Positions 27,001 through 33,000 of a stretch of DNA of 64,000 nt are shown piece by piece. Source of the DNA: an uncultured delta proteobacterium (GTDB taxonomy: Bacteria; Myxococcota_A; Polyangia; Polyangiales; Polyangiaceae); assembly GCA_963841435.1 (NCBI GenBank), contig CAWJCS010000002.1, positions 96,001-160,000 of the forward strand. Reading direction: 5' to 3'. Within the stretch, counting starts at the first letter, position 1. Each line of letters opens with the position of its first letter. Position numbers: made by a program.

Positions 27001-30000
27001 TCGAAGCCGCGACGGGCGTGAAGACGCTCGATATCGCCAAGCGCCTGATCGACTACGGCGTGCACCCGCCCACGGTGTACTTTCCACTCGTCGTGCGCGG
27101 CGCGCTGATGGTCGAGCCCACGGAGACGGAAACCAAGCAGACGCTCGACGAATTCGTGGCCGCGATGATCGCCATCGCGCGCGAGGCCCGCGAAACGCCC
27201 GACCTCGTGAAGCAGGCGCCGCACCTCACGCGTCTCGGCCGGCTCGACGAGGCGCGCGCTGCGCGGCGCCCACGCCTGCGCTGGAGCAAGCAGCCGCCGC
27301 CGCGCGCGTGAGCTTGCCGCTCAGGGCGTTCCGAACTCGCAGGCGAGCCACTCGCCGAGCGCGCGCCGCTCGGATTGTGTGGGCCGCGGGTCGCTCGGAG
27401 GCATGAAATCGTTGGAAGCGCGTGGTCCGGACGCCGCGACCGAATCGATGTCGGCCGCGTGCTCCGCGATGCTGTCGTAGTCGTCCCAGTTGTAGCCGGC
27501 GGGTGCGTGCTGCCGGTCGGCCCCCGACTTCGTCGTGCTGTGGCAGCGGGTGCAGTAGTCGTCGAAGAACCCCTGGGCGAAACCCTCGTAGGTGAGCGTC
27601 GAGCCGGACGGGCATGCGCTGCCCGACGCAGCGTTGGACGGGCCGGCGGGCGGGTCGTCGGGGCTGCCGCACCCGTACAAACCGGCCGCGCAAATCAACG
27701 AAATGAGTGACTTCATCGTGGATGTCATCCGACCGCCACGGCCGTGCGCCGATCGAGAAGCGCCCCGAAACACGGCGGAATCGGGTGCGCGGCCAGATGA
27801 CCTGGCTGGCCGAGCAATCTGAAAAAAGGCACGGCTAGGCTTTGACAGGGTTGCATCCGAGCGTAGCATGCAAGACCGGATGGCCGATCCACCGCTTGCG
27901 GCAGGGCAGATCATCGGGGGTAGGTACCGCGTCGAGGCAATGATCGGGGCAGGGAGCATGGGGTACGTCGTTTCGGCGTGGCATCTCGAGCTCGACCAGC
28001 GAGTAGCACTGAAGATTTTGAACCCTGATGTCTTCGAGCGGGGCGAGGCGCTCCAGCGCTTCCGGCGGGAGGTTCGGGCCGCGGCGCGGATCCGGAGTGA
28101 GCACGTGGCTCGGGTGACCGACGTCGGGACGCTCGAGGCGGGCGAGCCCTACATGGTGATGGAGCTCCTCCAGGGCAACAACGTGGAGGAGGAGATCACT
28201 CGTCGCGGAACGATCCCGCTCACGGAGGCCGTCGGCTACGTGCTCGAGGCCATGGAGGCGGTAGCGGAGGCGCACGCCGCCGGCATCGTGCACCGTGACC
28301 TCAAGCCTGCGAACCTGTTCATCACGCGCCGCGCCGATCGCACGCGGCTCGTCAAGGTGCTCGACTTCGGCATCTCGAAATCGCTCGCCGACAGCCAGGC
28401 GTCTCACGACATGTCGCTCACCAAGACGGGCGTCATCATCGGGTCGCCGCTCTACATGTCGCCCGAGCAGATGCGCTCGACCAAGGACGCCGACGCGCGG
28501 AGCGACATCTGGGCGCTCGGAGCGATCCTCTTCCAGCTCGTGACCGGCCGCCCGCCCTACATGGGAGAGACGATCCCCGAGCTCTGCGCGCAGCTTTTCA
28601 GCGAGGACGCACCCCCGCCGAGCACGCTCAGGCGCGATCTCCCGCCCGGCCTCGATCTCATCCTCGCGCGCGCACTGGCCCGCGACCCCAAGCAGCGTTA
28701 CCAGAACGTGGCCGAGTTCGGCGAGGCGCTCGTCGAGTTCGCCCCCGCGTCGCGGATCCACGTCGAGCGCGCCCGCCGCGTGCTCTTCTCGCAGGAGGGG
28801 CCGAGCTCGGAGTGGCCCGGCAGAGACCAGGCACCGGGCGCCCCGACGATTGCCGCGTCGGTTTCGACGCTCGAGCCGCAGGGGACCACCGCCGCGATTC
28901 GGGCGCGCCGCCGCTGGCCGGCCATCGTCGCCGTCGCGGCGCTGCTCGTCATCGGTGCGTTCGTCGTGAAGCAAGTCGGGCTCGGCGCCTCGCCGAAGGT
29001 CAACCCGGCGTCGGCTCCCGCGGCGCACCCGGAGGCCCCCACCGTCGCCCCGGCGCCGCAAGGAACCGCAGCGCCACCCGCGGAAGCCACGCAACCGGTA
29101 CCGTCCGTCCCCTCGGGCTCGGCGGACGCCGCCCACGTTTCGGTCGAGCCCGTCACGGGAGCAATTCCGACCGTAAGGCCCAGCACACGCGCGCCGAACG
29201 TCTCGCGGCCCAGCACACCCGGGCCCGCCGCTCCCCCGCCGCGCACCGACGGCATTTCGGATTTCGGCGGGCGCCGCTAGCCGCGGGGCGCCGCGTTCCA
29301 GAACGAGGCCAGGCGCGCTCGCCGCACCGGCTTCGCGCCCGAGCGACGCGGTACCGAGGGGCCATCGTGTCGTCTCGTCAACGCAAGGCCGATCCGGGTC
29401 GGAGGCCTGGAAACATGGCCGTTTCGCGTGGCGAGTGGCGCACGGTGCTGGACGCCGCGCCGCTGAAGTGGTGTTAGGGTCCGACCGTGATGGCTTCGAG
29501 GCAACGTTGGGGGATGTTGGTGTTGGCATTAATCGTTGGGCTTTGGTCCGTGCCCGCTCTTGCGGACGCGACGGCCCAAGACAAAGCGTCCGCCGAGGCG
29601 CTCTTCGACCGAGGCGTGAAGCTGATGCACGCCGGGAAGTTCGAAGAGGCGTGTCCCAAGCTCGAGGATAGTCAGCGCATCGATCCGGGTGTCGGAACGC
29701 TGCTCTATCTCGGCGAGTGCTACGAGAAGCTCGGTCGTCCCGCGAGCGCCTGGGCGACCTTCAGGGAGGCTGCTTCCTCGGCCGAGGCCTCGGGGCAGGC
29801 ACGTCGCGCTGGGCTCGCGCGCCAGCGCATCGCGAAGCTCGAGCCGGACCTCGCGTATCTCACGCTCGACGTCGCCGAGGCGACGCGCGGGCTCGAAGGG
29901 CTCACCGTCGTACGCGACGGCGTTGACGTCGGAGCCGGCATCGTCGGCGCCGCAGTGCCCGTCGACCCCGGCACGACCACGATCGAGGTCTCCGCCCCCG

Positions 30001-33000
30001 GCTACCAGCCGTACACGGTGACCGTGACGGTGTCTCCGAAGTCGAAGCAATCGCTGCTCATCCCCGTGCTCGTCGCTTTGCCAAAGCCGCCCCCCGAGCC
30101 CGAGGTCGCACCGCTGCCGCCGCCCACGCCCGAGGGCACGCAGCCGCCGCTGCCGTCTCCCGCGCCCCCACCCGAAAGGGGAGCGCATCCGCTGACCGTC
30201 GCCGGGATCGCCGTGGCGGCAGCGGGCGTGGTTGGGCTCGGTATCGGTACGTATTTCGGCGTCAAGGCCATCAACGAAGACAAGAAGGCCGACGACGGCA
30301 CCTGCGACGCGACCGTCTGCCAGGCGCAGGCCGACTACGACCACTCCCAGAACGCGCGCAAGGCTGCTACCGCCGCCAACGTGGCGATTGGCATCGGGGC
30401 CGGTCTGTTCGTCGCCGGCGGCGTGCTGTTCTTCCTCGCGCCGAGCTCGGACGAGAAAGACACGGGCTCGCTGCGCATCGGGCCCACGTTCGGTCCCGGC
30501 ATGGCCGGCGTGCTCGTGAAGGGGCGGCTGTGAAAAGCGCTCGCGTCAACGCTGCACGCGGCTTCGGCGCCGCGCTCATCGCGCTCATCGCGCTCGTCAC
30601 CGCGGGCGGTTGCCAGTCGATTGCCGGGATCGAAGAGCGCGAGCTCGGACCGTGCGGCGAATTTTGCGACACGGTGATGGCAAACTGCACGGGCGAAAAT
30701 CTGGTCTACGAGACGCGTGCAAAATGCATGGGCGTGTGCCAGCTCCTGCCGATCGGCGACAGCAACGAGCCGCAGGGCACCGACACCGTGGCCTGCCGTT
30801 TCCGCGAAGCGCGGCTCGCCAACACCTCCGTGGTCGAGGACATCCCTCGACACTGCCGCTCCGCCGGCCCAGAGGGCCTCGACTGCGGCGGAACCTGCGA
30901 AAGCTACTGCTTTCTCTACGAGAAGGCGTGTAGCGAGGTGCAGTGCGGCTCCCACGAGACGTGCGTTCAGAAGTGCGAGGCGCTGCTCGACAAGCCGACC
31001 TTCAGCCTCGTCGGCGACTACGAGGGCGACACGCTGCAGTGCCGCCTGGTGCACCTGAGCAACGCCACGATCCAGCCCGACCCCCACTGCGGGCACGCGC
31101 AGATGGTGGGCCCCACGTTGCATTGTTACTGGAACTCGGGCGAGACCGACATCCCCGGGCAACCCGACGAGCCGAGCTGCGAGGACTACTGTCGCGTGAA
31201 CGGCGTGGCGTGCACGGGCACGAGCGCGGTCTACGAGAGCCCCGAGCAGTGCATGGCACTCTGCGAGCACTTCGACCCGGGTGATTTCTCCGACACGTTG
31301 CAGAACACCCGCGGCTGCCGCATCTACCACTCGTACAACGGGCTCTGCGCGCCGGCGACGCACTGCCCCCATGCCGGGCCCCCGGGTGACGGACACTGCG
31401 GCGACGAGGACACGGGCAACTGCGATTCCTACTGCCACCTCGCGGCCGACATCTGTCCGAAGGAGTTCGACGACTCGTTCACCGACGAGGCGGACTGTCT
31501 CGCATCGTGCGCCAACGTCAACGGTGCCAAGAAGGACAGCGGCTACACCATTGCCGAGGCCAAGAAGGGCGGCGACAACCTCGCCTGCCGTTTCCTCGCC
31601 CTGAGCCGCGCGGCGCTCGACGATGCCGAGTGCGACGCGGCTTTCGGCGGCGATCCCTGCAACTAGGACCCCAACCCGGATCGAAGATCCGGGTTCGTCG
31701 GCGAGCACGGGCGCGTCGGGGCGCGGGCAGCGCCCGCTTCGACGCTACTTGTCTGCGCGAAACTCGCCGCTAGCTCTTCGCGACGGCGACGCCGATGCGC
31801 GCCCGGAGGGCGGCGTGCTCGGTGCTCACGGCGAACAGCACGAGGTCGCCGACCTGCTCGGTCACCTCGCCCGCCGCCAGGTCGGCGAAGCGCTCGATGA
31901 GCCGCGCCGAAAGCTCGAGGTTGCCCGTGGCGAGCAGCCCCGCGCGGCTGCCGGCGCGCGCCACGGCACGCTGGAAGCTCGCGAGCCGTTCGGGGAGCCC
32001 CGGGGTGACGACACGGCGTGCGGCCTCGCACGCCTCCGTGAGCGCTGGTCCGCGCAGGTGTCGCTTGAGGCTGCGCGCGAGGAGCTTGGTGTCGCCGTCG
32101 AGACCGCGCTGTCCGCCCGGCGTGTCGAGCGTCGAGGCCGCTCGCAAGAGGGACGCTAGCTCCTCCGCGGTGAAAAGCGCGACGGCGCGGTGCTCGGGGC
32201 GCAGGAGCACGAGGGTGCGCGACCACAGGAAGACGAGCTCTGGCAGACCGAGACCGCTGCCGAGCACCTTGCTCGCGGTCAAGGTGGGATCCTCGACGGG
32301 TGCGAGCGCGAGCCCGCTGCCGGCGACGCTGTCGAGCACGTGGAAGCGAGGCCGGACGAAGCCGAGCAGTCGCGCCGACCAGGCGAGGGTGCGCGCGAGC
32401 GTCGTCGTGCTCTTCTCGAGGTCCTGTTCCGTCGAGGGATCCAGGGCCGGGCCCCGCCGCTTGCGCCGCGCCGTCTCGACGCCGGCCGCGACCACGGCGT
32501 TGCCGAGCGCCGCGAAGGCGGCATCGAGCTCGTCGTCGCGCTCCTTGCAGAGGAGCTTCTTCTTCCAGTCCTCCTCCGAGAGCACGCCCTGTGCCGCGAG
32601 CAGCCCGTCCGGCCGGTGCGCCGATGCGAGCAGGCTCTCGTCAACGTCCGCCGCACCGAGCACCTCGAGCGCGGCGGCGGTCTGGTACTCGCCCTCCGGG
32701 TCGTTGGCCTTTTCGAACGCCTTGAGCAGCCCGCGTAACGTATCGGCGTCGCGCGGAGACGAGCGCAACGCTTCACGGTACGAAACCGCGGCGCCCTCGT
32801 GCTCGCCGCGCTCGAGTGCCGCGCGCGCCTCGCCGAGCGCACGCTCGCGGTCCTCACCGGTCGGCTTCGGTGGCTCCTGCCACGCCGGCTCGGGCTCAAT
32901 GGGCCCCTCGGCGGGCGGCGGCACGCTCGGAACGCCGCTCTGACCCCTCAGCACGACGAACGGCTCGGCGCCCGCGAAATGCCCGGTCGGCGAAAGCTCC

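Follow-up and report, generated by a model that had tools for sequence, protein, structure and literature searches.

The locus lies in the genome of an uncultured delta proteobacterium of the Polyangiaceae (GCA_963841435.1), on contig CAWJCS010000002.1, from which we analyzed a window of 64,000 nucleotides (contig positions 96,001-160,000; window coordinates are contig positions minus 96000). Three genes on the forward strand, spanning 27868-31666, encode a Ser/Thr kinase, an exported TPR-PEGA adaptor and a lipoprotein whose start overlaps the stop codon of the adaptor (Table 1). The first-pass annotation had placed the reading frames of the kinase and its partner correctly and regarded them as a module; the pairing stands, while the two-part make-up gives way to one that includes the lipoprotein.

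Table 1. Features of the kinase, adaptor and lipoprotein genes, in window coordinates.
Feature	Position	Strand	Basis
Sigma-70-like promoter consensus, just 5′ of the kinase	27842..27869	+	Consensus match only, 10/12 matches
Hanks-type Ser/Thr kinase, 470 aa: kinase domain, one membrane helix, Pro-rich linker, tail	27868..29280	+	
Predicted membrane helix of the kinase, residues 352-370	28921..28977	+	Hydropathy only
Conserved C-terminal tail, class A, ending D-F-G-G-R-R; terminates a hypervariable linker	29248..29277	+	Alignment
Adaptor, 348 aa: signal peptide, TPR, PEGA, Pro linker, helical hairpin with Cys pair, C-terminal beta-hairpin	29487..30533	+	
TPR domain, residues 30-121, five helices; putative tail receptor	29574..29849	+	Model, fold comparison, co-variation
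PEGA-like beta-sandwich, residues 123-192	29853..30062	+	Pfam and model
Gly/Ala-rich helical hairpin, residues 235-270 and 281-317, with two-Cys loop; putative membrane anchor and lipoprotein dock	30189..30437	+	
C-terminal beta-hairpin, residues 328-347, alternating beta-signal-like pattern; this copy ends in Leu	30468..30527	+	Model
Lipoprotein, 378 aa, lipobox Cys28, Cys/His-rich helical repeats; candidate surface sensor	30530..31666	+	

The kinase carries a Pfam Pkinase domain at residues 20-278, with the catalytic Lys and the HRD, DFG and xPE motifs of Hanks-type kinases at residues 46, 142, 166 and 198. Arg residues precede the predicted membrane helix and 100 residues come after it, including a Pro-rich linker without a folded domain. 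Pfam detected no PASTA domain in this kinase, which scored 278 bits against NF033483 (PknB/Stk1 PASTA kinase), below the cut-off of 450. The putative promoter was the only one found by the consensus scan, against 0.1 expected in shuffles, and because it overlaps the first ATG of the kinase, the true start may be the ATG at 27880. In an alignment of 59 class A tails, the rows of which were chosen by this very ending, G-G-R is invariant and F is present in at least 90%. There are 63 distinct class A-type tails across 80 named loci, these being mostly class A because a mixed alignment was too diverse for a locus scan.

In the adaptor, Pfam matches TPR_2 at residues 36-68 and PEGA at 137-190, and the signal peptide was judged by eye and from the structure model. 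Earlier described as poor, this model could now be obtained in good quality (pLDDT 85.9, pTM 0.58), and its TPR domain aligns with many TPR domains at VIA-align Z 12-15, as expected for a TPR fold. Whole-adaptor fold searches were filled by TPR and PEGA matches, so that the anchor fold was barely probed. The anchor region matched no Pfam or NCBIfam family; ETRAMP (0.87) and DUF5683 (0.81) were not accepted as its relatives, being weak Atlas matches, and its other Atlas neighbors are unnamed Myxococcota clusters. The name “serine/threonine-protein kinase” given to adaptors by JGI was rejected for the window copy, which has no kinase domain, and an apparent kinase-adaptor fusion in Sorangium So0157-2 proved to be a long open frame created by a frameshift within the linker, the tail remaining intact in a different frame. 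No kinase domain was found among 31 long adaptor homologues scanned, in the families listed. The lipoprotein was modeled with a pLDDT of 94.6; Foldseek returned no match for the model at E up to 0.001, and the best VIA-align match had a Z of 5.5. PF28386 (BfoA_C repeat proteins; Atlas 0.87, 186 of 256 features in common) is a lead only, and Pfam gave no match.

Our own gene calls comprise 6283 genes, and the 121 kinase genes among them equal the number counted previously with separate calls. The adaptor family has 38 core members, after three fragments or TPR-only proteins were removed from a loose set of 41; two further adaptors outside the gene calls both lie beside kinases. A kinase is found within two genes of 22 of the 38 adaptors against 7.3% expected, which agrees with the linkage first noted (22 of 37, about 7%). 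Adjacent kinases were counted for 20 adaptors (background 3.7%) and kinases within three genes for 25 (10.6%), whereas among 38 other TPR proteins only 1 lies within two genes of a kinase. Across six sets of relatives, a kinase lies within 700 bp of 59/66, 29/67, 11/17, 12/20, 15/25 and 13/21 adaptors. The linkage is incomplete in both directions: 13 of the 38 adaptors have no kinase within three genes, in Sorangium So0157-2 31 of 67 adaptors have neither a kinase nor a similar membrane protein within 700 bp, and eight tail-bearing kinases are orphans. Some adaptors are preceded by membrane proteins that are not kinases but carry the linker and tail of the kinases. Altogether 47 of the 121 kinases are built with a membrane helix and a Pro-rich linker, and 25 of these are near an adaptor. 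Sigma-54 activators are near only 6 of the 38 adaptors, and FHA was detected in two of four scanned. The first observation is thus confirmed and extends further than originally described. The trio of membrane kinase, exported adaptor and lipoprotein exists in dozens of copies in soil Sorangium-group myxobacteria and is apparently undescribed; we found no account of it in the literature searched, with most subscription papers and supplementary tables outside its scope.

Kinases paired with an adaptor are enriched in conserved tails, as proposed before (20 of 25 paired vs. 8 of 22 unpaired kinases with membrane helix and Pro-rich linker, p 0.003), with tail patterns that were, like the earlier ones, written after the tails had been seen. 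The first description of these endings as short acidic-aromatic tails holds for the existence of a tail; in place of a single motif there are at least five classes, some with basic end residues. A pattern-free Mantel test was applied to 81 dereplicated kinase-adaptor pairs: tail similarity follows the partner TPR with rho 0.287 and the kinase domain of its own chain with 0.064, where the permutation p-values overstate significance because the paralogues are related. The partial correlation of tail and TPR given the kinase is 0.28, against -0.007 for tail and kinase given the TPR, and correlations of the tail with PEGA or anchor are not significant given TPR and kinase; the outcome was unchanged in 60 pairs from relatives only. 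For the 49 of 81 tails that could be labeled (32 fit no class), 5 class changes are needed on the TPR tree, 8 on that of PEGA, 12 on that of the anchor and 14 on that of the kinase, compared with about 25 in shuffles, and the nearest neighbor predicts the tail class in 47 of 49 cases by TPR vs. 38 of 49 by kinase. Co-variation of tail and TPR peaks where the first two TPR repeats join. Fisher's test pointed to a charge swap between TPR position 2 and the tail (6e-6, 70 rows), which we set aside, as independent pairs did not support it.

Such matching could also arise if operons were duplicated as blocks and the tail followed the TPR merely as its DNA neighbor, for the usual gene order sets the tail directly 5′ of the TPR, TPR and kinase-domain similarities correlate mutually (0.245) and counts of independent pairs are small. 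We consider co-inheritance without binding highly improbable, given that the tail is conserved within a hypervariable linker, that its similarity agrees better with the TPR than with the kinase domain of the same chain, and that the match persists in convergent, divergent and reversed gene arrangements; the class was predicted from the TPR in all 14 classifiable rearranged or non-kinase pairs (34 examined, 20 unscorable). Structure prediction of the tail-TPR complex also speaks for contact, scoring 0.57 vs. 0.02 for the best control, with at least 93% of contacts agreeing between runs and partner pLDDT of at least 56. In the calibration of this score, 116 of 157 solved pairs and 2 of 215 mismatched pairs attained the mark, yet only 18 of those solved pairs, along with both mismatched ones, did so at or below 0.60, so that the predicted complex, which came without an interface, backs binding only weakly. 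The earlier tail-to-TPR idea has thus passed added tests, Mantel and class prediction, with binding itself inferred; it was supported but incomplete, having overlooked the lipoprotein, the division of the tails into classes and the occurrence of the same tails on non-kinase proteins. Binding might still do no more than position kinases or brace the two membranes, kinase activity being set otherwise. A linker without folded domain, and its presence together with the tail on non-kinase membrane proteins, would suit such a tether, but a tether would require neither five or more classes of tail in step with TPR subfamilies nor lipoprotein bodies of 36 kinds, and we think it improbable.

The other end of the adaptor appears to be matched to the lipoprotein. 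A lipoprotein gene directly 3′ of the adaptor is present in 14 of 38 cases here (583 of 6245 for other genes) and in 178 of 316 cases among relatives; beside 24 of the 38 adaptors in this genome no lipoprotein was detected. Among 71 pairs, similarity of the lipoprotein N-terminus tracks the anchor helices (rho 0.238, or 0.212 with TPR and PEGA controlled) but not the beta-hairpin (-0.004), and its relation to the TPR with the anchor controlled is weak (0.087). The peaks of lipoprotein-anchor co-variation flank the Cys loop. The bodies attached to these N-termini are diverse, forming 36 clusters among 71, and Pfam matches in 19 of 53 include lectin, carbohydrate-binding and propeller domains. 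Swapping of lipoproteins inside the orthologous group of the window was rejected, since 48 of 49 bodies are homologous.

These features might instead describe an export or display device, in which the adaptor carries or holds the lipoprotein at the surface in the manner of Slam and the kinase tail monitors this process rather than a ligand. A TPR domain, a beta-signal, a translationally coupled lipoprotein with an N-terminus that co-varies with the anchor, and the many adaptors without a kinase neighbor would all fit. We nevertheless find this unlikely: the TPR tracks the kinase tail above the lipoprotein (0.29 vs. 0.11), the adaptor model has two strands and no barrel, no lipoprotein was detected for 24 of the 38 adaptors here, and fusions to receptors retain the kinase, mostly without a lipoprotein.

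These fusions bear on the membrane in which the adaptor resides. Some TPR-PEGA modules are fused to TonB-dependent receptors; in 22 of 29 the next gene upstream encodes a kinase, these kinases have a tail class of their own, and a downstream lipoprotein is kept in 5 of 25. The fusion protein scanned contains TPR, three PEGA, Plug and barrel, and no STN domain was present among the families matched at E up to 0.01. With a kinase upstream, such a fusion puts the module at the outer membrane in the fusion forms at least; the receptor is confined to this subfamily and absent from the window adaptor by Pfam and model. The C-terminal aromatic residue reported for the family (F, W or Y) occurs in 74 of 82 dereplicated standard-length members, accompanied by hydrophobic residues at -5 and -7 as in BAM-type signals, but not in the window adaptor. 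The adaptor model contains the helical hairpin and two C-terminal strands, with no monomeric barrel and no such family match. Two strands per adaptor do not suffice for a barrel, which counts against an outer-membrane anchor unless the protein forms an oligomer.

Alternatively, the two long hydrophobic helices could span the inner membrane, with tail, TPR and lipoprotein meeting in the periplasm and the outer membrane never crossed. Helix 2 is indeed fairly hydrophobic and comes close to the kinase helices in this (medians 0.41 and -0.34); the window kinase helix and anchor helix 1 score 1.88 and 1.80; being alike in this respect, these helices cannot settle the membrane by hydrophobicity. In that arrangement, however, the hairpin loop would be cytoplasmic, whereas it is net acidic instead of basic and has an all-or-none Cys pair (two Cys in 60 members, none in 22, never one). 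Together with the aromatic C-terminus and the receptor fusions of the same module, this leaves an inner-membrane complex a slightly poorer prospect than the export device.

Our favored reading, which we hold with a little more confidence than doubt, is a three-part relay of surface lipoprotein, outer-membrane adaptor and inner-membrane kinase with a peptide code across the envelope. The co-evolving matching ends suggest, at the level of sequence, a “wire” that could bring outside signals across both membranes to the kinase. By its sequence the kinase has, after a cytoplasmic catalytic domain and one membrane helix, a Pro-rich linker of about 100 residues that finishes in the short conserved tail. 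That this tail binds the periplasmic TPR of the adaptor, tail class and TPR subfamily forming a specificity code among dozens of paralogues, is strongly indicated and in our view very probable. The adaptor is likely anchored in the outer membrane by both its helical hairpin and its beta-hairpin, probably as an oligomer; the place of this anchor is taken in other copies by a TonB-dependent receptor or by an extended C-terminal domain. Somewhat less surely, the first ten residues of the lipoprotein would dock it to the helices at their far end, and the lipoprotein would present a variable binding domain at the surface. Ligand or cell contact might then cluster or shift the adaptors and so gather the kinases for trans-autophosphorylation, with FHA/sigma-54 activators as one likely output. 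A bolder version, to which we give slightly less than an even chance, is that Polyangia possess a receptor-kinase system split across two membranes, with swappable surface lipoproteins on an oligomeric outer-membrane adaptor whose TPR reads a short peptide code at the tip of kinase tails that span the periplasm, and with a new type of anchor made of a helical hairpin and a two-strand contribution to a barrel.

Sorangium genomes encode 317 to 508 Ser/Thr kinases (PMC3696898), many of which lack a folded sensor domain. The module names a candidate input for each kinase with helix and Pro-rich linker near an adaptor and predicts cognate pairs from sequence. If true, Ser/Thr kinases would join the means that diderms have for sensing beyond the outer membrane. 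The split receptor-kinase reading would account for the inputs to a large fraction of the largest bacterial kinomes and be a bacterial counterpart to receptor clustering by ligands. The adaptor also points to a common, uncharacterized type of membrane anchor, and the peptide-TPR pairs, testable with short peptides and small soluble domains, could serve as modular parts for engineering.

Some Planctomycete kinases have periplasmic TPR or WD40 arrays, and kinase expansion there is linked to periplasmic TPR domains, the TPRs being fused to the kinase (PMC11032199), whereas in the present module the TPR belongs to an exported protein of its own. As in the PASTA kinases PknB/Stk1, a Hanks kinase has one membrane helix and an outward C-terminus, but what faces outward is an unfolded linker bearing the tail. 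The conserved extreme C-terminal peptide on a partner resembles the ligands of the TPR receptors Hop/Sti1, Tah1 and Pex5, and the adaptor TPR aligns with Hop, Sti1 and Tah1 at VIA-align Z 12-14; unlike those, the proposed pairing would take place in the periplasm of a bacterium and has been multiplied to form a code. Slam proteins of type XI secretion combine an N-terminal TPR, a beta-signal and a neighboring lipoprotein gene. The adaptor shares the N-terminal TPR, a C-terminus like a beta-signal and the adjacent lipoprotein gene, but its model lacks a monomeric C-terminal beta-barrel and it has a kinase partner. In the Rcs relay (RcsF-OMP-IgaA), a lipoprotein, an outer-membrane partner and an inner-membrane protein act in series, as they would in the proposed module, which shows no sequence kinship to it in Pfam or NCBIfam and comprises dozens of paralogous sets with a Hanks kinase. 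In FecA-FecR-FecI cell-surface signaling, a periplasmic N-terminal module of the outer-membrane protein contacts an inner-membrane transducer encoded beside it. Here too, neighboring genes encode a putative outer-membrane protein and an inner-membrane transducer, and one subfamily is a TonB-dependent receptor. In the present module, however, a Ser/Thr kinase serves as the transducer, TPR-PEGA stands at the N-terminus where the Fec system has STN, contact would be made through a short tail at the end of a flexible linker, and in most copies a hairpin anchor and a lipoprotein stand in for a transporter. The best reading is a relay that works like cell-surface signaling but is built from other parts.

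The adaptor whose gene follows that of the kinase in the window is exported and ends in a presumed anchor, a helical hairpin with a beta-hairpin, and a lipoprotein gene completes the module. The kinase has intact catalytic motifs and a single membrane helix, followed by 100 Pro-rich residues, the last six being D-F-G-G-R-R. The first-pass annotation had judged the adaptor model poor, but the AlphaFold model (input of 125 sequences) now has a pLDDT of 85.9 and a pTM of 0.58, and runs from five TPR helices through a beta-sandwich and a loose linker to two 36-residue helices and a terminal beta-hairpin. 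Homologues with names belong to Polyangiaceae and Myxococcota. Many adaptors (P0003 and other homologues) carry the JGI label "serine/threonine-protein kinase", although in length and similarity they match the window protein, which has no kinase domain.

Module genes and neighbouring features in the window
Feature	Position	Strand	Remarks
Cys-rich Stig1-repeat lipoprotein	19984-21594	+	no adjacent adaptor; Stig1 bodies also in module lipoproteins elsewhere
Small lipoprotein	27321-27716	-	CxxCH cytochrome c-like motif; divergent from kinase
Kinase	27868-29280	+	ORF; kinase domain confirmed by Pfam
Exported TPR-PEGA protein (adaptor)	29487-30533	+	ORF; TPR and PEGA confirmed by Pfam
Cys-rich protein (third gene)	30530-31666	+	start overlaps adaptor stop
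Weak caspase-like N-terminus and TPR protein	31770-33749	-	convergent on module

Gene calling with a hexamer model gave 6283 genes, among them 121 kinases and 38 core adaptors. A kinase adjoins 20 of the 38 adaptors (3.7% by chance) and lies within two genes of 22 (7.3% by chance), compared with 1/38 for other TPR proteins, which bears out the genetic tie claimed in the first-pass annotation. Of 151 genomes from the phylum, 97 contain matches to the family profile at E up to 1e-15, not all of them complete; two Sorangium genomes have 83 and 103. Once matches with short flanks had been left out, a kinase was found within 700 bp in 59/66 class A loci of relatives (the tail classes are described below), for 29/67 copies in Sorangium So0157-2, and in 11/17, 12/20, 15/25 and 13/21 of the remaining sets. 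About one third of the adaptors in this genome have no kinase within three genes, and nearly half of those in So0157-2 lack both a kinase and a comparable membrane protein within 700 bp, which counts against a relay. The three-gene module is real and widespread, and apparently previously undescribed. At one locus (G000:C1:308651-310886) transposase genes, presumably an IS66 element, separate a class A kinase from its class A adaptor, and So0157-2 has adaptor-lipoprotein units in tandem arrays, several without kinases (L332, L336, L353, L354).

The kinase tails had been described as acidic-aromatic, a single pattern that resolves into several classes: class A ends in basic residues, class B has N-P-F/Y, class C has G-F/Y/I/L as its extreme end, class D has a motif bounded by Cys, and tails preceding receptor fusions form their own class, D-I-R-x-x-R. 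Every class pairs with a recognisable TPR subfamily. Because these patterns were written after the tails had been seen, a pattern-free similarity test was used, for which 408 TPR-PEGA matches yielded 262 pairs with a scored neighbour and 99 after dereplication at 50% identity, 81 of them with sufficient catalytic domain in the kinase. Co-inheritance alone is a rival reading. Similarity of the last eight tail residues correlates with that of the TPR at 0.287 vs 0.064 for the tail's own kinase domain (n = 81), although p-values overstate this since kin are not independent. With the TPR controlled, tail and kinase domain do not correlate (-0.007), neither PEGA (0.026) nor the anchor (0.052) makes a significant further contribution (n = 81 throughout), and the linker control gave no signal. 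The outcome was the same in 60 relatives-only pairs, and the suggested tie of tail to TPR is supported.

For the 49 of 81 tails assignable to a class, FastTree trees require 5 class changes for the TPR, 8 for PEGA, 12 for the anchor and 14 for the kinase, vs about 25 in shuffles; the 32 that match no class count against a relay. Among 34 rearranged or non-kinase-partner pairs, 14 tails are classifiable and the TPR predicts the class in all 14, two of which are mutual orthologues. At TPR position 2, a swap between acid and base was not upheld by the independent-pairs test. Complex prediction scored 0.57 for tail and TPR vs 0.02 for the best control, with at least 93% of contacts shared between runs and a partner pLDDT of 56 or more; 116/157 solved and 2/215 mismatched pairs reached the mark, but only 18 solved and both mismatched ones at this score level. 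This prediction weakly backs the pairing, and its score is possibly due to likeness to solved TPR-peptide complexes. The comparative evidence for a tail-TPR code is strong, and the kinase tail very probably binds the adaptor TPR. In So0157-2 the orthologous kinase is frameshifted in the linker, with the tail in another frame (L212:2660-5023), by assembly error or in reality. A small exported-looking protein (G000:C1:234552-234962) repeats a D-P-W motif resembling class B tails and could be a decoy.

The make-up of the module also varies. Two adaptors in the genome are preceded by kinase-free membrane proteins with the same linker, one tail being clearly class B, and So0157-2 has seven such linker-bearing cases past the filter. 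Two kinase-free membrane proteins (G000:C6:953094-953804, with Sorangium counterpart L348, and G000:C2:1076210-1076890) lie immediately 5' of adaptors and have a short low-complexity N-terminus, Pro-rich linker and tail. Another kinase-free membrane protein (G000:C2:866090-867589) combines a folded N-terminal domain with a class B tail and is followed by a kinase, with no adaptor nearby. The same anchor also bears tandem TPR or TPR-PEGA repeats, of 2-7 units or 11 PEGA domains on a similar anchor (P0123, P0130, P0137, P0143, P0148, P0222, P0238). Short adaptors with a single hydrophobic helix (L230, L235, L240, L244, L245, L248, L249, L397, L398) have partner lipoproteins with a common, distinct N-terminal motif, and their kinase is often divergent.

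A fusion of TPR-PEGA x3-Plug-barrel into a TonB-dependent receptor is present in 25 of 41 genomes searched, with a kinase immediately upstream at 22/29 loci. Of all the evidence, this fusion speaks most firmly for a TPR directed from the outer membrane into the periplasm; that 5/25 fusions retain a lipoprotein counts against a relay. TPR-PEGA is elsewhere joined to a longer C-terminal domain, beta-barrel-like by eye and without a Pfam match in the one scanned (G000:C6:657564-659036, L344, L345, L349, L350; most downstream of a kinase). The rival placement is a complex within the inner membrane. The anchor helices are less hydrophobic than the kinase helices, with large overlap on the hydrophobicity scale used. 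The last residue is F, W or Y in 74 of the 82 standard-length adaptors, positions -5 and -7 being hydrophobic. The anchor loop is slightly acidic and carries either two Cys (60 adaptors) or none (22), a pattern that suits an oxidising compartment rather than the cytoplasm. The adaptor is probably anchored in the outer membrane; if its two strands entered that membrane, an oligomer would be implied. Judged by the dimensions involved, about 100 extended Pro-rich residues are enough to span a periplasm.

A lipoprotein-like gene lies directly 3' of 14/38 adaptors vs 583/6245 other genes, and of 178/316 distinct relatives, commonly with stop/start overlap; the detector, a lipobox pattern, misses some. 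In 71 dereplicated trios, lipoprotein residues +2 to +11 follow the anchor helices (0.238) more closely than they do the TPR (0.107) and show no such relation to the beta-hairpin (-0.004), and sliding peaks flank the Cys loop, at the end distal to the TPR, with a smaller signal in the first TPR. The bodies fall into 36 clusters in these trios; of 70 listed, 53 were scanned and 19 matched Pfam (Stig1, MopE-like, FGE-sulfatase, SBBP and RCC1 propellers, ricin lectin, CBM5/12 with tectonin, lamin-tail). The body is conserved in the window's orthologous group (48/49), and its model is a confident fold (pLDDT 94.6) with no clear PDB match in a structure search. One rival makes the adaptor a Slam-like device for displaying this cargo; we lean towards a lipoprotein that docks at the surface.

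For 6/38 adaptors a sigma-54 activator is encoded no more than three genes away (3.3% expected), with FHA in two of four scanned, a hint that they may be the output. What the sequences show is the order of the genes, the anatomy of the domains and two signals of co-variation; by hypothesis, clustering would activate the kinase, the rival being a passive tether.

No description of the module was found in the literature searched. PEGA occurs in unrelated conflict systems (PMC7159879), kinases of Sorangium genomes have been counted in a paper whose main text, as far as seen, does not mention PEGA, TPR or lipoprotein (PMC3696898), and planctomycete kinases carry their periplasmic TPRs on the kinase chain itself (PMC11032199), unlike the separate exported adaptor here. 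The window kinase is not a PASTA kinase. The module would operate similarly to cell-surface signalling and to the Rcs relay, and differs from both in the defining features that were tested.
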